A stretch of 64,000 bases of DNA from Candidatus Nomurabacteria bacterium (GCA_026396015.1 JAPLXP010000011.1:15897-79896), one strand, 5' to 3'; counted from the stretch's first letter, positions 5,605-47,603 are shown. The notes: generated by a model not told the origin, from the letters alone. Program-made: numbers and translations.

Positions 5605-5901
5605 ATGACAAAAACTTACCAAGTAATAAAACCTGTTGGCTTCGCTGGTCGCCGAGAAATCGGTGAGATGTTGGAGCTGACAGATGATGAGGCGCGCAAT
5701 ATTGGTGACGAATTTGTGAAGCTTGTTCCTGATCAGGAAGAAAGTACAGATGTGGCAGAGTCAGAAAAAACTGATGAGCCTGCAGATGAACATGAACCTG
5801 AAAAAGAAGAAGAACACGAAGAAGTTGCTCCGGAGTCCACACCTGCGACCGCAGGCGATAAAGTCGAGGACGAGGATGGTGTCAATCACGATAACGCGTA
5901 A
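5605..5901 (+). CDS. small highly acidic phage protein
   Basis: 98-aa ORF; the C-terminal half is D/E-rich. Confidence 0.5.
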   Translation: MTKTYQVIKPVGFAGRREIGEMLELTDDEARNIGDEFVKLVPDQEESTDVAESEKTDEPADEHEPEKEEEHEEVAPESTPATAGDKVEDEDGVNHDNA

Positions 5902-5916
5902 GCCCAAAAAAAACAT

Positions 5917-6339
5917 ATGAGATCAGTATATGACGGAGTTAAATCTTTAATCGCAATTCGTCCAGTTAATGCATCTGCAGTTCAGACAAGTGCAGCTATT
6001 GATACCCAAGGGTACAACAGCGCAATGTTTGTGATTGAAAATGGTGCTGCGACAGGAACACCAACGAGCTACACAGTAGACGCGAAGGTGCAGGAATGTG
6101 ACACGTCAGGCGGTACATACGTCGACATCCCGAGTTCAGCAATCACACAAATCGTTGCAGATAATAAATCTGCACAGATTCGTGTTGAAGCATTGAATAC
6201 CGGACGCAAGCGTTTCTTTAAGCTCTTGATTACTCCTGCATTGACAGGTGGTACAACGCCTAAAGCGCTTATTTCCGGACATGCGCTCCTCGGACGTGCA
6301 TTCCAGAATGCGGTTAGCAACAGCTCAGTTCCTGCTTAG
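5917..6339 (+). CDS. phage hypothetical protein (possible head decoration/minor capsid)
   Basis: 140-aa ORF downstream of the capsid gene, Thr/Ala-rich. Confidence 0.45.
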   Translation: MRSVYDGVKSLIAIRPVNASAVQTSAAIDTQGYNSAMFVIENGAATGTPTSYTVDAKVQECDTSGGTYVDIPSSAITQIVADNKSAQIRVEALNTGRKRFFKLLITPALTGGTTPKALISGHALLGRAFQNAVSNSSVPA

Positions 6340-6345
6340 TCAGGA

Positions 6346-7044
6346 TTGAGTCTCGGCTCACGCGCTCTCGGCAACGGGGGCGCGACGCGGGGACTTAATA
6401 ATAAAATCCCCGAAACATTTATGGCAGAAACAATCTACACATACGCACTGACGACAGTGCAAAGAATGAAAGACAGAATGACAATCACGGTCACAGACCA
6501 TGATGCAAATTTATTGCGCATGATAAATGTGGTCACTGATTTCATAGAAAGCCAATGCCATAGAAGATTCCTTGAAGGTACTTATACCGAAGAAGTCTAC
6601 TCGATACATGGACACAAACAGAATCATTTGTTTTTGAAACACTATCCTGTCTCTGTTCTCACACAACTGCAATACGGAGTAGGCACGCCTTCAAATAAAA
6701 GCTGGACGAGCTATTTGGTCGATGACTTCGAGCTTGCTGATGACGGAGGCAACGGACTGGTCCGCATGTATAACATCCTTCCGTATGGCGTGAATAAGAT
6801 TCGCGCGACCTACACAGCCGGATACAAGATCGACTGGCCGAACTTTGGAACTGCTACTCACACATTGCCTGCAGATTTGACCGACTTATGCGAGCGACTG
6901 GTAACAAAGCTCTTTAAAAAGCGCGATCAAGAAGGCAAAGATGAGGAGATATTCAACGGTAATCGAGTGATTTGGAGCAAAGAATTATCGCCCGATGACA
7001 AGGCAGTGGTCGCACACTACAAACGATTCCCAGTATTTTCTTAA
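6346..7044 (+). CDS. Putative head-tail connector / head completion protein. The real start is possibly the ATG near 6421.
   Basis: The segment MAETIYTYALTTVQRMKDRMTITVTDHDANLL resembles gp6-like head-tail connector N-termini. The first ~25 codons are GC-rich and atypical. Confidence 0.4.
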   Translation: MSLGSRALGNGGATRGLNNKIPETFMAETIYTYALTTVQRMKDRMTITVTDHDANLLRMINVVTDFIESQCHRRFLEGTYTEEVYSIHGHKQNHLFLKHYPVSVLTQLQYGVGTPSNKSWTSYLVDDFELADDGGNGLVRMYNILPYGVNKIRATYTAGYKIDWPNFGTATHTLPADLTDLCERLVTKLFKKRDQEGKDEEIFNGNRVIWSKELSPDDKAVVAHYKRFPVFS

Positions 7045-30697: not shown

Positions 30698-30725
30698 TTG
30701 ACATATATTGAAATTTTTGTACAAT
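30698..30725 (+). promoter_or_regulatory. sigma70-like promoter TTGACA-16 bp-TACAAT for the 30771 gene
   Basis: Direct read. Confidence 0.45.
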
Positions 30726-30770: not shown

Positions 30771-31049
30771 ATGAGTAAAGAAACAGTAGACCCAGGAAGT
30801 ATTGGGATTAGAGAGCTTGGAAAAAAATTCCAAGCAATTATCGAAAGTTTTCAAAATGGTGATTTTGAAAAAATTAATTGTCCAACGCCCTCGAACAACA
30901 AGGGGCACGAGGAGATGATCTTCTTTACGTTCATTAAACCAAATGAATTTTTTTATATAAACAATTTAACTGGATCAATCACAGCACATAATTGGGTACT
31001 GGATGAAATCGCAGCTCTATTGGAAAATAAAAAACAAAAAGCAAACTAA
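30771..31049 (+). CDS. hypothetical protein
   Basis: 92-aa ORF with an upstream promoter and a downstream bidirectional terminator. Confidence 0.5.
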   Translation: MSKETVDPGSIGIRELGKKFQAIIESFQNGDFEKINCPTPSNNKGHEEMIFFTFIKPNEFFYINNLTGSITAHNWVLDEIAALLENKKQKAN

Positions 31050-31088: not shown

Positions 31089-32189
31089 CTATATCCCCTC
31101 TTGCTTTAGTATTTCAAGTGCATCGCGTGATTTTTTAGAAAGCTTGGTTGGCATCTTGATCTGAATGCGGATGATGATATCTCCACGCTTTGATCCAGAT
31201 GGTACGCCCTTGCCCTTTACCCTCAAAAATTCTCCATGATTTATCCCCTCTGGAATTTTTATTTCAAGTGATCCATCGAGAGTCTCGAGATCGTAGTTCA
31301 TACCTAGTAGTGCATCTGAGAGCTTGATATGTACATCAGTCATCAGATTCGCACCTTCACGGCGATACGTCTTGTGAGGCCGTATATTGATGCGGATATA
31401 TAGATCTCCAGACGGAGCACCTTTGATCGCTTCACCGCGACCTGTCATACGGATAGTCTCGCCATTGTTTAGTCCTGCTGGGATTGCCACCTTGATCTCT
31501 TCTTGTTTATTGTGTACACCTTTGCCATGACATTCACTGCATTTTTCATGAGGTATTTTTCCTGCACCTGTACATGAATCACATTGCTTGATACTAGAAA
31601 ATGATCCGAGGATAGAGCGCTTCATCTCTCTGATCTGGCCCTGGCCATTACAAGTCTTGCATTCGTCCATCTTTGTGCCAGGTTTTGCACCACTACCACT
31701 ACATACCTCACAAGCTGACTGCTTTGTGAGTAAAATTGACTTTGTAGTACCAAAAACAGCCTCGGTAAAGTCCAAGTCTATTTCTGTAGAAATATCGCGT
31801 CCACGGCGACTATGGGCCCCTCTGCGGCCCATCCCACCACTGAACATATCTCCAAAAATATCTCCTAAATCTCCCATGTCGAATTCCATACCACCTTGCC
31901 CTTGGTTGAAGCCAGAAAAGTCAAAACCACCGAAGCCTTGACCCCCTCCAAAACCACCCTGACCACCAGCAAAACCAGCAGGTCCGTCAGATCCAAACCT
32001 GTCGTACTGAGCACGCTTTTGATCGTGAGAAAGAGTCTGATAAGCCTCATTCACTTCTTTGAATTTTGTATCGTCACCCTTGTTTTTATCTGGATGGTAT
32101 TTATGCGCCATCTTATGAAAGGCCTTCTTGATCTCATCCTTTGAAGCGCTCTTATCTATTCCTAATGTTTCGTAGTAATCTTTTGCCAT
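31089..32189 (-). CDS. dnaJ: molecular chaperone DnaJ
   Basis: 366 aa. J-domain HPD (YHPDKN), G/F-rich linker, and four CxxCxGxG zinc-finger repeats. Confidence 0.95.
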   Translation of the reverse strand: MAKDYYETLGIDKSASKDEIKKAFHKMAHKYHPDKNKGDDTKFKEVNEAYQTLSHDQKRAQYDRFGSDGPAGFAGGQGGFGGGQGFGGFDFSGFNQGQGGMEFDMGDLGDIFGDMFSGGMGRRGAHSRRGRDISTEIDLDFTEAVFGTTKSILLTKQSACEVCSGSGAKPGTKMDECKTCNGQGQIREMKRSILGSFSSIKQCDSCTGAGKIPHEKCSECHGKGVHNKQEEIKVAIPAGLNNGETIRMTGRGEAIKGAPSGDLYIRINIRPHKTYRREGANLMTDVHIKLSDALLGMNYDLETLDGSLEIKIPEGINHGEFLRVKGKGVPSGSKRGDIIIRIQIKMPTKLSKKSRDALEILKQEGI

Positions 32190-32225
32190 AATATTTTTTA
32201 ATTATACAGATACTAATTAGTAAGT

Positions 32226-32258
32226 CAAAAATTCCTGAAATTTATTTCAGGAATTTTT
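32226..32258 (-). terminator. dnaK-dnaJ intercistronic hairpin (11-bp stem ATTCCTGAAAT/ATTTCAGGAAT plus T-tract); partial terminator/attenuator
   Basis: Direct read. Confidence 0.55.
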
Positions 32259-32265
32259 ATAAAGA

Positions 32266-34155
32266 CTATTTATTCTCTGGGTTCTCGTTTACTTCTGCAT
32301 CCTTGATCTCTTCTGCTTGAGGTTCTGCTGTTGTTCCTGTCTCAGGAGCGGCACCAGCCTTACTCATAGCTTCGCCAATCTTGGACATCTCGCTAGATAG
32401 AGCCTCTGTAGCATTCTTAATTGCATCAAGATCACTACCCTCTTTTGTAGCACGGAGAGCAGATATTGCAGATTCTACACCAGCCTTGAGTTCTGGTGTC
32501 ACTTTGTCACCATAATCTTTTATAGATTTCTCGGCAGTAAAGATTGTCATTTCTGCAGTATTTTTCGCATCAACAATTTCCTTTTTCTTTGCATCCTCCT
32601 CGGCATGAGTCTCGGCATCAGCCTGCATCTTTTTGATATCTGCATCAGATAGACCTGAAGAGGCTTCTATGCGAATTGATGTTTCTTTTCCTGAAGCTTT
32701 GTCTTTTGCTTTTACATTCAGAATTCCGTTCGCATCGACATCAAATGTCACTTCGATCTGTGGCATACCGCGTGGAGCTGGTGGAATATCTCCAAGGATG
32801 AATCGTCCTAATGATTTGTTGTCACTAGCCATTGATCGCTCTCCCTGAGTGATGTGTATTTCTACACTTGTCTGATTGTCGGCAGCGGTTGAGAATACTT
32901 GAGATTTTGAAGATGGGATTGTAGTATTGCGTTCTACTAATTTTGTAGCGATTCCTCCTAGTGTCTCGATACCCAGTGATAGTGGAATAACATCGAGGAG
33001 TAGGACATCCTTTACATCACCTTGGAGTACTCCAGCCTGGACTGCAGCACCTAGGGCCACTACCTCGTCTGGGTTGATACTGCGATTTGGCTCTTTATTG
33101 AAGAGTGCCTTTACAGCCTCTACTATCGCTGGCATTCTTGTCTGACCTCCTACCATGATGATCTCATTGATCTCACTCATTTTGAATGGTGAAGCCTCCA
33201 TAGCACGCTTTGTGATCTCGATAGAACGCTTTATATATTCATCAGCGATAGATTCGAGCATGGCACGAGTCATCTTTTCTACTAGGTGCTCTGGGCCATT
33301 CGCACCACTTGTGATGAATGGGATATTGATCTCTGTCTCTGGAGTTGTGGAAAGTTCAATCTTTGCTTTTTCAGCTGCCTCGTCGAGACGCTGTAGAGCA
33401 AGAGGGTCTTTTGATATATCGATACCTGTGCGAGATTTGAATCCATCTGCTAGCCAGTTGATGATCTTTTGATCGATATCACGTCCTCCCATGTGACTAT
33501 CTCCATCTGTAGATTTTACTTCGATAACATCGTTTGAAACTTCGAGAACTGACACGTCGAATGTACCACCTCCAAAGTCGTAAACAACAATCTTTTCATC
33601 TTTCTTTGTGTTGAATCCGTATGCTAGAGCTGCTGCTGTAGGCTCGTTGATGATACGCATCACCTCGAGTCCTGCGATAGCACCTGCATCCTTTGTAGCC
33701 TTTCTCTGAGCATCGTTGAAGTATGCAGGCACTGTGATGATAGCTTGAGTTATTTTTTCTCCGAGCTTTGCCTCTACATCGGCCTTGATCTTTGAAAGGA
33801 TCATCGCTGATACTTCTTCTGGGCGCTTCATCTCACCACCTATGCCTACCTCTACTCCACCATCTTTACCATTTTGAATCTTGAATGAAGCAGTTTTTTG
33901 TGTCTTCTGTATTTCAGGATCAGCAAAATTGTGACCCATGAATCGCTTGATACCGTAGATTGTATTTGTAGGATTTGTCACAGCCTGACGCTTTGCTAGA
34001 AGTCCGACAAGACGATCGCCATTTTTGGCAATCGCTACGATAGAAGGAGTCGTACGAGCACCCTCGATATTTTCTATTATTTTTGGCTGACCACCTTCGA
34101 TGATAGCCACTGCACTATTTGTTGTACCCAAGTCTATACCTATGATTTTTGACAT
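32266..34155 (-). CDS. dnaK: molecular chaperone DnaK (Hsp70)
   Basis: 629 aa. [18 protein letters not shown] and the C-terminal acidic tail are present. Confidence 0.97.
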
Positions 34156-34169
34156 ATATGTTTATTTGA

Positions 34170-34730
34170 TTAACTTTTAATGCTTGCAATAATATTTGTC
34201 CGATTTTGATCTATATAATGTTTAAATAAAGGAAATTTTTCAGAAATCTCATAATATACACCAGATGAGTTACCAGATTTCCAAAAATTTTTAATTATTT
34301 TTTCATTAGTCCAATGAAGTAAAACAAAATCATCCAAATTATTTCTTCCTTTTATTATTAAATTACCTATTTCTTTTTCATCTAATTGGTTAAATTTTTT
34401 TATAAATTCTGAATGCTCTTTAAATCCTTCTTCAAATTTTAAAAGTCCTGATTTTATTTTATTGTTTATCTCTATTTTATTGTAGTAAAAGTAAAGATTA
34501 GGGATTAATTTAGAAATATAACTTGATACACTACCTAGTCCAGTAATATTATCAATATCACCTGAATCATTAAATTTAAAATCATATTTTATTTTAAATC
34601 CTGATTCTTTTTCTTTATCTACAACACTGTTAATAGTTGCTTCTATGTCATTTAATAATTTATTATTTAAATAATCAAAATCTTTTAGTAATTCTATTTC
34701 TGTAAATAAATTTGTGTCTAATTTTCTCAT
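34170..34730 (-). CDS. hypothetical protein, ultra-AT-rich (foreign-looking)
   Basis: 186-aa ORF, strongly AT-biased and Asn/Lys/Ile-rich. It ends 14 bp upstream of dnaK. Confidence 0.5.
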   Translation of the reverse strand: MRKLDTNLFTEIELLKDFDYLNNKLLNDIEATINSVVDKEKESGFKIKYDFKFNDSGDIDNITGLGSVSSYISKLIPNLYFYYNKIEINNKIKSGLLKFEEGFKEHSEFIKKFNQLDEKEIGNLIIKGRNNLDDFVLLHWTNEKIIKNFWKSGNSSGVYYEISEKFPLFKHYIDQNRTNIIASIKS

Positions 34731-34733
34731 ATA

Positions 34734-35162
34734 TTAATTTATTTCATTAATTTTTAATAATTTTCTAATTTTTAAAATCTCTTCTCTTCTTGTTTTGGCA
34801 TCACATATATACCAAGATAAACTTACAAGTAAACATAAATTATCTGCGGCCTTTCTAATATTTTTTGATTTAATATTTTTGAATACTAATCTTTTGTAAT
34901 CTGTTTCTAGGTCGCATGACAATGCTCTAATTTTATTTTCAATTTCCTCTGATATCTCTTTGGGAATTTTTTCTATGTCATTAAGTATTACTGATAAGTA
35001 AAAATTTAACTGATGGTCAATTTTAGATACAGTGTCTTTGTATTTTTGTCTTGGTTTTAATATGTAATCTTGAAATATTTGACTCAAAACAAATACTAAT
35101 ACTCCAGCAATTACAGTTTGAAAAACAGTACTTTGTATTAAAATTAATAAAAAATTAAACAT
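34734..35162 (-). CDS. hypothetical membrane-anchored protein, ultra-AT-rich
   Basis: 142 aa with an N-terminal TM helix. There is a 3-bp gap to the next gene. Confidence 0.5.
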   Translation of the reverse strand: MFNFLLILIQSTVFQTVIAGVLVFVLSQIFQDYILKPRQKYKDTVSKIDHQLNFYLSVILNDIEKIPKEISEEIENKIRALSCDLETDYKRLVFKNIKSKNIRKAADNLCLLVSLSWYICDAKTRREEILKIRKLLKINEIN

Positions 35163-35199
35163 ATATTACATAATATACCCAATTTATATTTTTGACAAG

Positions 35200-35215
35200 T
35201 ATTTAGTGACCACTA
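35200..35215. promoter_or_regulatory. 16-bp perfect palindrome TTTAGTG-AC-CACTAAA in a divergent promoter region, overlapping a TTGACA -35 box
   Basis: Direct read. It lies between the 34734..35162 (-) gene and the PaaX-like regulator gene (+). TGCTATAAT at 35239-35247 precedes the regulator gene. Confidence 0.5.
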
Positions 35216-35249
35216 AAACTATGTTGATATTATATTCAGCTATGCTATA

Positions 35250-35876
35250 ATGTCAAGCATGGAAAATAAGCCTAAAAAACAAGATTTTTCAAAGAAAATC
35301 ATTAAAATATTGTCTGGAAAGAGCGCTGTGGCGGTGGATGATTTAGTAAATATGGTATCGCATTCATCCCCTCCTTTCGGAGGAGGGGTGGCTGAAATCC
35401 GGGGTGGTGATCCAATTCGAATCACCACCCCCAACCCCCTCCTCAACAAGGAGGGGGCGAAAAATGCATACGCCCTTACTCGCTCTATAAAGGGATTAGA
35501 GGACTCAGGGCTCATAGAGCAGGTGTCTTCAGGGCAATCTAAATACGCTCGCCTGACCAAGGAAGGCAAGAAAAAGGCGCATAGCCTGAAGCTCGATGGA
35601 GATGGGGCTATTATTGATACGTCTTGGGACGGATACTGGAGGATGATCATTCTCGATATTCCTGAGGATAGAAAGAGTGAGCGTGAAGCACTACGATACC
35701 TACTAAAAAAAGCAGGATTCATTTGTGTAAAGAATTCAGTATGGATATCTATACTCCCATTTGAAAACTTGTTCATGAATATTAAAAAGGATTTAGGCTT
35801 GACCACAGAGATGATGATCGTAGTCACTGATCGCATAGACGAGGATACAGAAAAAGAGTTTTTGAAGTTGATTTAA
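35250..35876 (+). CDS. PaaX-like transcriptional regulator (N-terminal wHTH + PaaX_C/Cas2-fold C-domain) carrying an in-frame GC-rich insert
   Basis: 208 aa. The N-terminal wHTH reads ILSGKSAVAVDDLVNMV. The C-terminal domain reads WDGYWRMIILDIPEDRKSEREALRYLLKKAGFICVKNSVW. Residues about 38-72 (HSSPPFGGGVAEIRGGDPIRITTPNPLLNKEGAKN) are encoded by the palindromic element at 35368-35457. Confidence 0.65.
   Translation: MSSMENKPKKQDFSKKIIKILSGKSAVAVDDLVNMVSHSSPPFGGGVAEIRGGDPIRITTPNPLLNKEGAKNAYALTRSIKGLEDSGLIEQVSSGQSKYARLTKEGKKKAHSLKLDGDGAIIDTSWDGYWRMIILDIPEDRKSEREALRYLLKKAGFICVKNSVWISILPFENLFMNIKKDLGLTTEMMIVVTDRIDEDTEKEFLKLI
35368..35457 (+). repeat. GC-rich palindromic mini-element A, about 90 bp with three hairpins, inserted in frame in the PaaX-like gene
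   Basis: Stems read directly: CCCCTCC/GGAGGGG, GGTGGTGAT/ATCACCACC (9 bp), CCCCCTCC/GGAGGGGG (8 bp). Confidence 0.7.
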
Positions 35877-35937
35877 GACTTGTTTGACATATATTCTAAA
35901 TACGTTATAATAAGAAAAAATTAAAAAGGAGGAAAAT

Positions 35938-36501
35938 ATGTCGCACCTTAAAATGGAAGTTATAGTTTGTATTGCATTAGCTCGTTTCTTTTGTTTAAAA
36001 AATAATAAAAAACCTGATCCATATAAAAATGCCGTTGAAGAAGTGCGATTGGAATATTTTCCTGAGTACGATCAACATGAATTTTTAGGAGATATTACGA
36101 AAGTAAAAAATCGTATTAAAAAAGATGGGACCATGGCTCTTATTTTAGCTAAAATAAGAGAGGGTAAGAAATATTCTGAAATATCCGATTTACTTGATAA
36201 TAAAAATCAGGAAGAAATGGACTTTCATAAAAATTCTTATTCTAAATATAATTTTGAAAGCGGAATAGCTCTGTATCACTATCTTAGTGCTGGCGCTGTA
36301 CCAGATTGTGCTCATGACACCATTACTCCATATGAGGCCAGCTTGCTTGGTGTAGATCCAGATCCTAAGGAAGTGTTCTTAAAACAAATACAAGAAGAGC
36401 CAATCTTTATGGTGACTGCTAAAAAAATAAGAAGAAAAATAAAAGAAAAATTGCAATTACATTTTGATTTCTACGATAACCCTGATGTTGTTATGGGTTA
36501 A
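35938..36501 (+). CDS. hypothetical protein
   Basis: 187-aa ORF followed by a bidirectional terminator. Confidence 0.5.
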   Translation: MSHLKMEVIVCIALARFFCLKNNKKPDPYKNAVEEVRLEYFPEYDQHEFLGDITKVKNRIKKDGTMALILAKIREGKKYSEISDLLDNKNQEEMDFHKNSYSKYNFESGIALYHYLSAGAVPDCAHDTITPYEASLLGVDPDPKEVFLKQIQEEPIFMVTAKKIRRKIKEKLQLHFDFYDNPDVVMG

Positions 36502-36504
36502 AAC

Positions 36505-36536
36505 AAAAAAGCCGCACTATAATGTGTGGCTTTTTT
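36505..36536. terminator. bidirectional intrinsic terminator (GCCGCAC/GTGTGGC stem flanked by A6 and T6)
   Basis: Direct read; between convergent genes 35938..36501 and grpE. Confidence 0.65.
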
Positions 36537-36544
36537 ATTTGTCT

Positions 36545-37123
36545 TTATTTAAATGCGTAGACTTTTACACGAGCTGGGCGGATGACTTTATCCCCCATCT
36601 TGTATCCAGATTGGATTACCATAGCTACTGTATGATCTTTACTTTCTTCGTCTGTATCAATATTCTCTATGGCTTCATGTGTATTGTGGTCAAAAGCTAC
36701 TCCTACACTATCAATCTTTGTAATATTATATGATTCTAGTGTTTTACCGAATTGCTGATGGATGTATTCCATACCATTTCTCCAGTTTGCATCCACCTTT
36801 TCCCATGCCTCCTTGTTTGATAGTGCCATATCAAAGGCATCCAATGCTGGGAGCAGATCCTCTACTAGTCCTGCAGTGATGAATCCACGAAGGTCTTTAA
36901 TCTTGGTATCCATGTCTTTTTGGGCATTGGCATAGTCAGCCTTGGATCTTTGCCATCCAGTCAAATACTCTTCTTTTTCTTTTCTAAGGGTTTTTATTTC
37001 TTCGCGAAGTTTTTTTACTATATCCTTTGTTGGCAGCTCATCACCATCCTCAGTACTGTCTACAAAAGTCACATCATCAACTTCTTCAATATTTTCTTGT
37101 TTTATTTCATCTTCATTTTTCAT
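36545..37123 (-). CDS. grpE: nucleotide exchange factor GrpE
   Basis: 192 aa. Acidic N-terminus, coiled coil, and a C-terminal beta-domain (KVIRPARVKV). Confidence 0.9.
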   Translation of the reverse strand: MKNEDEIKQENIEEVDDVTFVDSTEDGDELPTKDIVKKLREEIKTLRKEKEEYLTGWQRSKADYANAQKDMDTKIKDLRGFITAGLVEDLLPALDAFDMALSNKEAWEKVDANWRNGMEYIHQQFGKTLESYNITKIDSVGVAFDHNTHEAIENIDTDEESKDHTVAMVIQSGYKMGDKVIRPARVKVYAFK

Positions 37124-37132
37124 AGCGAGTTT

Positions 37133-37160
37133 ATTATATCAAATAATTTTATATATTCAA
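37133..37160 (-). promoter_or_regulatory. grpE promoter (- strand TTGAAT-16-TATAAT, 9 nt before the ATG)
   Basis: Reverse complement of 37124-37160 read directly; no CIRCE element seen. Confidence 0.45.
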
Positions 37161-46514: not shown

Positions 46515-47603
46515 TTACTGAACGATTCCACCACCAAGACACACGTTGTTGTCGTATATTACGATAGATTGACCAGGTGACACTAGGATAGAATTGTCGA
46601 ATATTACCTTGATATTACTACCTACTGTTGCCAACACACAATTCAAAAATTCACCGTGATATCTGATCTGTGCTGTGTACCTGCCTGTCCGGTAGGCAGG
46701 TTTTTTGTTTTCAATCACAGAAACATTTTGTATATTTGAATTTATGAGTGTGTATTCTTTATTTGAATCACCACCCCCTGCCCCCTCCTCAGAAAGGCAG
46801 GGGTTATTGGATACTATAATAGTATTTTTATTTATGTCTTTTGATATTACATAATATGGCTCGTCGTTTACGCCCTTCACTGTAATAGTAAATCCATGAC
46901 GTTCACCCAGAGTAAAGAACACTGCACCATCATGGTATCCAATTACTTCTCCATCAACATTTAATACATCACCATTTTGGGGTTCGATGTAATGAGACAG
47001 GAAATCTTTCATATCAAGGGGTCCCAGGAAGCACACACCCTGAGAATCCTTCTTTACTGCAGTTGGAAGCTTGTATTTCAATGCCAGTTTTCGAACTTCA
47101 GTTTTTGGTAGATGGCCAATCGGGAAAAGAGTATGATCTAGGTCGTCGCTGTTTAGGGTCCACAGAAAATATGACTGATCTTTTGATTCATCATTTCCTT
47201 TTACCAATTTATTATTTATATTTTGTGCATAGTGGCCAGTAGCGATAAAGTCTACACCTTGTGATTTAGCAAAATTCCAAAAAACACCAAATTTTACTTC
47301 ACGATTACACATCACGTCTGGATTTGGAGTACGACCCAATTTGTATTCAGAAATCATATAGTCGGCTACACCTTTTTTGTAAGCCTCTTCACCGTCGCAT
47401 TCTAAGAATGGTATATCAAGATGTGCACATACGCGCATCGCGTCGCGGCGCTCATCGCGCCATGTACATTCAATAAAATCAGGCTGCCAGGTACGAATAA
47501 AAACCCCGACTACTTTGTAGCCTTGATCCTTTAGTAATGCAGCAGATACAGAAGAATCAACTCCACCACTCACACCGACAAATACTGTTTTTTGATTTTC
47601 CAT
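46515..47603 (-). CDS. mnmA: tRNA-specific 2-thiouridylase MnmA with an in-frame GC-rich insert
   Basis: 362 aa. PP-loop VFVGVSGGVDSSVSAALL; catalytic Cys region. The sequence SEEGAGGGDS is encoded by element C. Confidence 0.9.
   Translation of the reverse strand: MENQKTVFVGVSGGVDSSVSAALLKDQGYKVVGVFIRTWQPDFIECTWRDERRDAMRVCAHLDIPFLECDGEEAYKKGVADYMISEYKLGRTPNPDVMCNREVKFGVFWNFAKSQGVDFIATGHYAQNINNKLVKGNDESKDQSYFLWTLNSDDLDHTLFPIGHLPKTEVRKLALKYKLPTAVKKDSQGVCFLGPLDMKDFLSHYIEPQNGDVLNVDGEVIGYHDGAVFFTLGERHGFTITVKGVNDEPYYVISKDINKNTIIVSNNPCLSEEGAGGGDSNKEYTLINSNIQNVSVIENKKPAYRTGRYTAQIRYHGEFLNCVLATVGSNIKVIFDNSILVSPGQSIVIYDNNVCLGGGIVQ
46764..46803 (+). repeat. GC-rich palindromic mini-element C, about 40 bp at roughly 90% identity to the 3' part of element A, in frame in mnmA
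   Basis: GAATCACCACCCCCTGCCCCCTCCTCAGAAAGGCAGGGG versus A GAATCACCACCCCCAACCCCCTCCTCAACAAGGAGGGGG; compared by eye. Confidence 0.65.

Follow-up and report, generated by a model that had tools for sequence, protein, structure and literature searches.

Which protein and which DNA element control dnaK at a chaperone locus where four genes stand between grpE and dnaK? The question arises from a 64,000-nucleotide (nt) stretch of DNA (JAPLXP010000011.1:15897-79896), hereafter the window, which NCBI lists as 'Candidatus Nomurabacteria bacterium' with locus tags NTX85_034xx. The gene map confirmed that grpE (36545..37123; Pfam GrpE, E 1.4e-42) lies on the minus strand together with dnaK (32266..34155; Pfam HSP70, E 4.5e-240) and dnaJ (31089..32189), the latter being downstream of dnaK in relatives too, and that four open reading frames (ORFs) separate grpE from the dnaK-dnaJ pair. 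Two of these, p142 and p186, are AT-rich; the third encodes a short PaaX-like protein and the fourth, p187, a protein of 187 amino acids (aa) without any family match. An earlier note on this DNA had seen this arrangement and read it as a heat-shock operon split by one 2.4-kb insertion. Judging from sequence comparison, we consider it probable that the PaaX-like protein is an ancestral repressor that controls its own gene and dnaK(-dnaJ) by way of a single palindromic operator, and that the accessory genes were captured in the leader.

The map was built from ORF calls over the whole window, with families assigned by Pfam and sigma-type hexamers located by a promoter scan that scores each site out of 12. 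It was compared with 80 grpE-anchored loci from GTDB species representatives, all of them metagenome-assembled genomes from the Candidate Phyla Radiation (CPR)/Patescibacteria labelled Nomurabacteria, Paceibacterota or Minisyncoccia, whose GrpE proteins are 44-83% identical to that of the window. A second set of loci, from JGI metagenomes, was anchored on the regulator family. Relatives were sampled as ~10 kb around each chaperone locus.

When the window proteins were mapped onto the 80 loci, the gene order of the lineage proved to be rplM-rpsI-grpE>, <PaaX-like, dnaK>, dnaJ>, with rpsI, not hrcA, upstream of grpE in the window as in the relatives. The PaaX-like gene (NTX85_03410; 35259..35876, plus strand, 205 aa) is divergent from dnaK and adjoins it in all 55 grpE-anchored loci that hold both genes, the window included, and this adjacency holds even where grpE sits 2-9 kb off. 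The converse, regulator-anchored test gave the same picture: dnaK is divergent and adjacent, across a gap of 69-541 nt, in 68 of the 69 metagenome loci with enough upstream sequence. The regulator is ancestral and lineage-wide across the Paceibacteria/Nomurabacteria sample, not inserted. Its position between grpE and dnaK in nearly all relatives is the normal state of the lineage, so that the 'split operon' is no anomaly. By contrast, none of the 80 GTDB loci contains a match to p142, p186 or p187. The synteny comparison that the earlier note had called for came out divided: three of the four genes are indeed absent from the closest GTDB relative (L002), but the fourth is ancestral, and contiguity of grpE and dnaK was not found as the norm.

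Between the two divergent genes lies a 30-bp palindromic operator of 14-2-14 architecture (35195..35224, both strands), which is conserved across loci with the consensus ACAAGTATTTcGyGryCrCgAAATACTTGT. It is found upstream of dnaK in 126 of the 128 loci with a dnaK start, both exceptions being truncated contigs. Each locus has one operator, and scanning 1.3 Mb genome-wide returned a single spurious match elsewhere, with 9 mismatches. Its symmetry averages 11.2 of the 14 pairs, and the information content of the intergenic region peaks sharply over the 30-mer. The palindrome reported in the earlier note is the 7-2-7 core of this operator, TTTAGTG-AC-CACTAAA; it is real, but it lies at 35202-35217 rather than 35200-35215, and it consists of 7-nt arms around a non-symmetric AC rather than being a perfect 16-mer.

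Three promoters crowd onto this element. On the minus strand, the upstream promoter in the dnaK direction, P1 (TTGACA-16-TATAAT, 35256..35229; 12/12), has its predicted start at ~35222, the edge of the operator, and the downstream dnaK promoter, P2 (35198..35170; 10/12), combines TTGTCA (35198-35193) and TATTAT (35175-35170) across 17 nt, its -35 box falling within the right arm of the operator. As for the 'TTGACA' box that had been noticed, located at 35192-35197, its reading on the minus (coding) strand is TTGTCA, and it is this conserved -35 box of the dnaK promoter. On the plus strand, the regulator promoter (TTGATA-16-TATAAT, TG-extended, 35224..35251; 11/12) abuts the operator, is interleaved with P1 and predicts a leaderless mRNA from the ATG at 35259. 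That ATG, 7 nt past the -10 box, is the most likely start of the regulator, rather than 35250, according to the comparison with L002 and the NCBI call of 205 aa. Among 118 unique contexts, a P1-type promoter ending at the operator was present in 103 and a P2-type promoter in 80; 66 had both and one had neither. This conserved palindrome thus overlaps the promoter of the target and that of the regulator and is inherited together with the regulator, an arrangement classical for autoregulated divergent repressors. Because the single operator overlaps or abuts each of the three promoters, a bound dimer would interfere with all of them. The suggestion that dnaK is driven from this region (35163-35258) under the control of the PaaX-like protein, via the palindrome, is thus probably right in substance, but the promoter is not part of an inserted cassette.

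A variant of the operator, ACAAGTATTTTGTATACACAGAAAACTTGT, with the same outer arms and a different core, occurs in a more distant lineage, in L088 (3529-9034) and also in L089 and L090, where the regulator is 34% identical. In these loci the operator precedes grpE, after which come a p186-like gene, dnaK, a CTP_transf_like ORF of small size and dnaJ; this places grpE inside the regulated operon.

The operators of known heat-shock regulators were not found at these genes. The CIRCE element (controlling inverted repeat of chaperone expression; TTAGCACTC-N9-GAGTGCTAA) has no match in the window at up to 3 mismatches and none in 1.36 Mb of window and relatives at up to 1 mismatch per arm, in agreement with the earlier note. 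No HspR-associated inverted repeat (HAIR; CTTGAGT-N7-ACTCAAG) and no PaaX box (TGATTC-N27-GAATCA) occur in the window, and its sole CtsR-like match lies within the ORF of a 460-aa decarboxylase, not at the chaperone genes. A search of the region against Rfam at E <= 1 gave nothing above threshold and hence no known RNA thermometer or leader. As for a wider regulon, neither groEL nor clpB was present in the 1.8 Mb of locus sequence examined.

What kind of protein is the regulator? Pfam assigns it to PF20803 (PaaX_M; E 2.8e-19, 69.4 bits against a cut-off of 24), confirming the assignment in the earlier note. Its family has more than 1,800 members in a collection of 5.8 billion proteins, typically 172-185 aa long; the members listed all carry PF20803, nearly always as the sole domain, under the source names 'PaaX' or 'hypothetical'. 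No solved structure is related to it by sequence. In an AlphaFold2 (AF2) model, whose predicted local distance difference test score (pLDDT) averages 72 overall and is 85-90 over the C-terminal domain, a winged helix leads into a domain of beta-alpha-beta-beta-alpha-beta topology. The elements of a winged helix-turn-helix (wHTH) are present in the model (H10-20, H26-34, H66-82 and a beta hairpin at 86-99), and Foldseek matches it to PaaX, MarR and other wHTH proteins. Ranked first are 8a39, the PaaX of E. coli (E 2e-5), and 3l09, a PaaX-like protein, and Cas2 structures fit the C-terminal half. Pfam gives no hit to PaaX_C, the protein stopping after the Cas2-like domain, and its score against the PaaX equivalog TIGR02277 is 32.9 bits where the cut-off is 264.55. 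Because the C-terminal effector domain and the PaaX operator are both absent, we regard the regulator as built on a PaaX-like scaffold and not as a PaaX equivalog.

PaaX itself is a GntR-type repressor of phenylacetate catabolism whose C-terminal helical domain senses phenylacetyl-CoA; it binds TGATTC-N27-GAATCA and is autoregulated by promoter occlusion (PMC9493321). The regulator described here shares the N-terminal winged helix and the Cas2-like central, or dimerisation, domain (PF20803), and is probably autoregulated likewise. It differs in lacking the C-terminal five-helix domain (172-205 aa versus ~305 aa), in its compact 14-2-14 putative operator and in being linked to dnaK, with grpE, dnaK and dnaJ rather than paa genes as neighbours. 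Literature searches for PaaX-type proteins with dnaK, heat shock or CPR, for Parcubacteria repressors and for Patescibacteria HrcA found nothing relevant.

The family alignment shows the winged helix to be far less conserved than the Cas2-like C-terminal domain, which has dozens of invariant residues and motifs that include WDGxWR...D.PE.RK.ERE.LRYLLKKAGF and NIKKDL. In some relatives, further PaaX_M-type proteins, distant paralogs with 29-40% identity, are encoded within a few kb of the chaperone locus and not beside dnaK (L018 16811-17227, L021 17825-18241, L030 8732-9070 and L035 17015-17173); CPR genomes may use the short PaaX_M scaffold for several regulators.

If the regulator is ancestral, what was inserted? 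Boundaries drawn by blastn against L002 revealed three independent differences, between which the operator, the promoters and the intervening sequence are kept. An AT-rich insertion of 957 bp (34182-35138, minus strand; G+C fraction (GC) ~0.21) carries p142 and p186 and replaces 56 bp of the L002 dnaK leader. A 680-bp insertion with p187 (35877-36556) replaces 44 bp, and a GC-rich element of 138 bp within the regulator gene (35342-35479, plus strand) replaces 78 bp. The proximal dnaK leader, the last ~26 nt before the ATG (34156..34181, minus strand), is retained, with homology resuming at 34181 in L002 and at 34163 in a second, ~91% identical relative (L171). Instead of a single 2.4-kb insertion, therefore, a conserved regulator gene is flanked by two separate ones. 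The junctions of the AT-rich insert showed neither direct nor inverted repeats and no target-site duplication or terminal repeat, and the whole 64-kb window contains no tRNA, tmRNA or Rfam family at the gathering threshold and thus no integration-site marker of that type.

The two AT-rich genes are real: p186 stops 14 nt short of the dnaK ATG, and p142 (34734..35162, minus strand, 142 aa) has an N-terminal hydrophobic, transmembrane (TM) helix and a start codon 7 nt past the -10 box of P2. GC drops to 0.19-0.25 over 34150-35200, compared with ~0.40-0.46 in the flanking dnaK and grpE. The idea of horizontal acquisition holds to the extent that p142 and p186 are lineage-specific AT-rich additions absent from L002; it does not extend to the regulator, operator or promoters. 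The AT-rich genes entered downstream of a pre-existing promoter, which reverses the causal arrow of the earlier note. The scan found no minus-strand terminator between p142 and dnaK (35162-34156), and promoter-like matches inside the insert are weak, reaching 10/12 at most and 9/12 for the one nearest to dnaK; with neither a terminator nor a good internal promoter, co-transcription of p142-p186-dnaK from P1/P2 is the simplest reading. A separate possibility, that the start codon of p142 derives from the ancestral leader, was rejected: its similarity to the L002 leader is low-complexity AT, and the p142 homologs share the N-terminus.

The interval from operator to dnaK is occupied by ORFs in 21 loci, where its GC is 0.21-0.35 versus 0.35-0.52 for dnaK. 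The cargo of this slot amounts to 37 ORFs, 23 singletons and five small families, among which the recognisable domains are Trypsin_2 (trypsin-like protease), PspC, LMWPc (low-molecular-weight phosphatase) and a P-loop kinase. Its turnover is best seen in L171, which has 90-93% DNA identity to the window over dnaK and the ribosomal genes, 96.9% over 35185-35345 and an identical operator. In place of p142 and p186, the slot of L171 holds five different ORFs (96, 163, 50, 84 and 141 aa), two of which are homologous to slot ORFs of L007 and L068. The promoter-to-dnaK leader is a hypervariable, fast-turnover, AT-rich accessory compartment. Low GC is not the mark of one odd acquisition, because it is typical of all slot cargo and of the whole p186 family. 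As to integron-like features, neighbouring cargo ORFs stand 3 nt apart in the window and 5-91 nt apart in L171, with no flanking repeats; no dedicated attC model was run. The loci contain only one recombinase, beside a relative of p186 (P0130).

From the observed synteny, the conservation and position of the operator, the domain architecture, the insertion boundaries and the turnover of the slot, we propose the following mechanism. A dimer of the regulator, with its wHTH and its Cas2-like dimerisation domain, would bind the single 30-bp palindrome, and one bound dimer would repress dnaK(-dnaJ) and the regulator together, repression being more plausible than activation. Release under proteotoxic or heat stress would then induce dnaK(-dnaJ) and the regulator, making the system a functional analogue of HrcA/CIRCE or HspR/HAIR on another protein scaffold. 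Co-transcribed with dnaK from the regulated promoters, p142 and p186 would come under the same control, and p187 and the GC-rich element of the regulator gene would represent further independent recent insertions.

Several points weigh against this proposal. With only ~10 kb sampled per locus, it is possible that hrcA or CIRCE lies elsewhere in these genomes. Weak promoter-like matches are many in AT-rich DNA (36 found versus 22 expected), which makes an internal dnaK promoter within p186 possible. The greater conservation of the Cas2-like domain, compared with the DNA-binding domain, hints at an additional activity or interaction beyond dimerisation, and the extra disordered stretch of net ~+20-23 aa just before the recognition helix of the window's regulator might impair it. 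Finally, the association of p186 with dnaK is based on seven cluster representatives, possibly not independent.

Among the slot cargo is p186 (34170..34730, minus strand). This 186-aa, all-helical protein has no Pfam, NCBIfam or significant PADLOC match and appeared orphaned in a word-indexed search; an exhaustive HMMER search was needed to recover its family, seven representatives among 1.84 billion. The six distant relatives are full-length, with identities of 33-42% by phmmer and 28-39% in the family alignment, and all members are AT-rich (GC 0.26-0.30). The AF2 model of the family is all-alpha, with a predicted template modelling score (pTM) of 0.75; neither PDB nor BFVD contains a significant neighbour of it. 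Pattern scans found the p186 family neither in JGI metagenome contigs nor in IMG/VR, nor the p142 family in IMG/VR, and profile searches of all 6,545 ORFs in the sampled loci yielded no new members. In five of the seven representatives (the window, L081, L084, L087 and L088-L090) dnaK follows immediately after the gene, the order in L081 being regulator, operator, p186-like gene, dnaK. Such a placement in several lineages points to a role related to DnaK or else to strongly preferential insertion. Could p186 be a lineage-specific DnaK partner, that is, a co-chaperone, substrate adaptor or modulator whose place in the operon reflects its function? Its position directly 5' of dnaK in five lineages, including the grpE-p186-like-dnaK-dnaJ operon of L088, speaks for such a role, as do motifs conserved across members that are only 28-42% identical and a confidently predicted helical fold without known neighbours. 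Against it stand the great rarity of the family, its absence from most relatives (the near-identical L171 among them), the two members not beside dnaK, and the lack of any similarity of p186 to J-domain proteins, GrpE, BAG or other known Hsp70 cofactors. We judge a DnaK partner to be unlikely.

It is also rather doubtful that p142 and p186 form a selfish or defensive module (a toxin-antitoxin or abortive-infection system or a membrane-stress effector, maybe of phage or mobile origin) that has no tie to DnaK and exploits a strong promoter, as the earlier note had suggested in its toxin/abortive-infection reading. The TM helix of p142 and its match to the phage family phrog_7512 (E 3.5e-11) would suit this origin, as would AT-rich cargo that turns over between near-identical genomes and the p186 relative P0130, one of the two members away from dnaK, which adjoins a large serine recombinase and a SocA_Panacea-type helix-turn-helix (HTH) protein. 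Positive support for toxicity or defence did not emerge, however. PADLOC gave no hit for the pair beyond a non-significant LeoBC match (E 0.038), the IMG/VR pattern scans revealed no viral copies, and p142, whose four homologs lie on short contigs, was not found paired with a p186 relative outside the window genome, so their pairing is not conserved. That five of seven p186 representatives lie directly 5' of dnaK in differing arrangements would be unexpected for a DnaK-independent gene, and other cargo of the slot has ordinary stress or proteostasis domains.

The regulator itself might have been misread: the palindrome could be bound by another factor, or the PaaX-like protein could be an activator or have no regulatory role, for example as a Cas2-like nuclease, and be a mere conserved neighbour of dnaK. 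Conservation within the protein is indeed highest in the Cas2-like domain, which retains a D-x-P-E-D-R-K stretch on its first strand, and the wHTH loop tolerates large insertions. On the other hand, gene and operator strictly co-occur; the overlap of the operator with the gene's own promoter is a usual trait of autoregulated repressors; a 14-2-14 palindrome suits a dimeric wHTH; the operator sits on a -35 box or on transcription starts in a repressor-like position; and in structure the protein comes nearest to PaaX, itself a repressor, and to PaaX homologs (PMC9493321). We hold this explanation to be improbable. Hardly credible is the original idea that a single horizontally acquired 2.4-kb cassette of four genes brought the regulator and its promoter/operator, split an ancestral grpE-dnaK operon and took over dnaK transcription: the four intervening ORFs, two of them strong compositional outliers, and the lack of three of the four in L002 had made it attractive, but essentially all relatives examined have the regulator, operator and promoters in this position, window and L171 share 97% sequence identity over them while carrying different cargo alongside, and blastn resolves three separate events with conserved sequence between them around a regulator gene whose GC is normal outside the GC-rich element.

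An ancestral PaaX-like repressor of dnaK invites comparison with the classical heat-shock repressors. Like HrcA/CIRCE in its presumed logic, the system has a repressor-type protein encoded at the grpE-dnaK-dnaJ locus and a long inverted repeat over a chaperone promoter; it differs in fold, in the lack of CIRCE across the sequence searched, in the place of the regulator gene, which diverges from dnaK instead of heading the operon, and in leaving grpE usually outside the unit. HspR, of the MerR type, represses the dnaK operon in Actinobacteria and elsewhere. As there, the regulator is coupled to dnaK and probably autoregulated, and DnaK-dependent feedback may be possible; unlike there, it has no MerR-type domain and no HAIR near the chaperone genes, and it is divergent from dnaK rather than the last gene of its operon. 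The slot resembles accessory-gene hotspots in having unrelated, AT-rich, fast-turnover cargo between conserved anchors, here the regulator/operator and dnaK, with some families crossing lineages. It departs from them in lying within a 5' leader downstream of a regulated promoter, with no integrase, attachment-site repeats or target duplications seen.

The GC-rich element is a nested hairpin whose RNA fold has an energy of -63.5 kcal/mol (z -7.2), indicating strong self-complementarity. It sits in frame in the loop before the recognition helix and encodes a disordered stretch, a net addition of ~20-23 aa, and the AF2 model is poor over the corresponding residues 37-66. Because proteins of the same 90% cluster lack the element, as does L171, its insertion is recent. 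A partial copy (46765-46797) lies in frame inside an mnmA-like ORF (46515-47603, '...SEEGAGGGDS...'), and relatives carry copies at L072 16531-16623, L031 11297-11344 and L053 18888-18932, the hosts including the regulator gene and the dnaK 5' untranslated region (UTR). Like Rickettsia palindromic elements (RPEs), it is a short self-complementary repeat placed in frame in coding genes, here the regulator and the mnmA-like gene, where it adds a surface loop; it differs in being GC-rich in an AT-rich genome, with few partial copies in the sequence sampled. It is not known to be related to RPEs in sequence.

The second gene-sized insertion carries p187 (35938..36501, plus strand), which stands between the regulator and grpE, the second variable position of the locus, and has no match in Pfam, NCBIfam, PADLOC or PHROG-type searches. 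Its promoter (TTGACA-16-TATAAT, 35884..35911, plus strand; 12/12) is followed by a classical AAAGGAGGA ribosome-binding site, in contrast to the regulator, p142, grpE and dnaJ; L171/L172 conserve both the promoter and this site. These four genes of the window have a consensus -10 box 6-11 nt before the ATG and no Shine-Dalgarno sequence (35246-35261, 35162-35175, 37123-37138 and 32189-32206, respectively), a spacing which suggests leaderless or near-leaderless mRNAs. L002 lacks p187, and at its position L171 has a 153-aa ORF that is collinear and 24% identical (pairwise E 0.16), a weak similarity; this probably reflects a fast-evolving gene rather than a separate insertion.

Around these features, grpE has its own promoter (TTGAAT-16-TATAAT, 37160..37133, minus strand), which the earlier note had identified correctly and which has no operator, and a hairpin between A and T runs (36505..36536, both strands) forms a bidirectional terminator for p187 and grpE. 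Upstream of dnaJ is a promoter-like site of its own (TTGACT-16-TATAAT, 32228..32201, minus strand; 11/12). A 92-aa plus-strand ORF (30771-31049) lies between the gene for the 460-aa Orn/Arg decarboxylase-like protein and dnaJ; its promoter is near consensus (TTGACA-16-TACAAT, 30698-30725), and a gene call for this ORF likewise exists on L173, an identical Logan contig. Between grpE and rpsI, where the window has a gap of only ~180 nt, L171 has an extra 261-aa PG_binding_1/Pur_ac_phosph_N protein (5681-6466), so that a third position of the locus varies between close relatives. A structured repeat of ~96 nt (z -3.4; L009 11512-11607), resembling a miniature inverted-repeat transposable element, is absent from the window but occurs in both orientations in 11 relatives (L009 and also L008, L011, L013, L023, L029, L049, L095, L097, L104 and L109), at intergenic sites in the dnaK 5' UTR, the dnaK-dnaJ spacer and the grpE-regulator spacer.

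Within this locus, the p186 family may be nominated as a candidate DnaK-associated factor. A hotspot that lies inside a regulated 5' leader and differs in content at ~91% identity informs how reduced genomes acquire and express genes. For annotation, the labels 'PaaX' and 'phenylacetate operon repressor' on these CPR proteins are misleading. In its widest form, which we offer tentatively and would not yet call likely, the proposal is that the truncated PaaX-like protein serves throughout Paceibacteria as a dedicated, autoregulated stress repressor of dnaK in place of HrcA/CIRCE, with the leader acting as a gene-capture hotspot under chaperone-type stress control and p186 as a possible new DnaK partner. 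Regulator and operator constitute a class-wide candidate pair for dnaK in CPR bacteria, of which we found no prior description. Taken together, the locus would supply a regulator-operator-target triplet for DnaK in uncultured CPR/Patescibacteria, where regulation is almost unexplored and few transcription factors are recognisable, and would place in proteostasis a PaaX_M/Cas2-like scaffold that had no earlier link to it.

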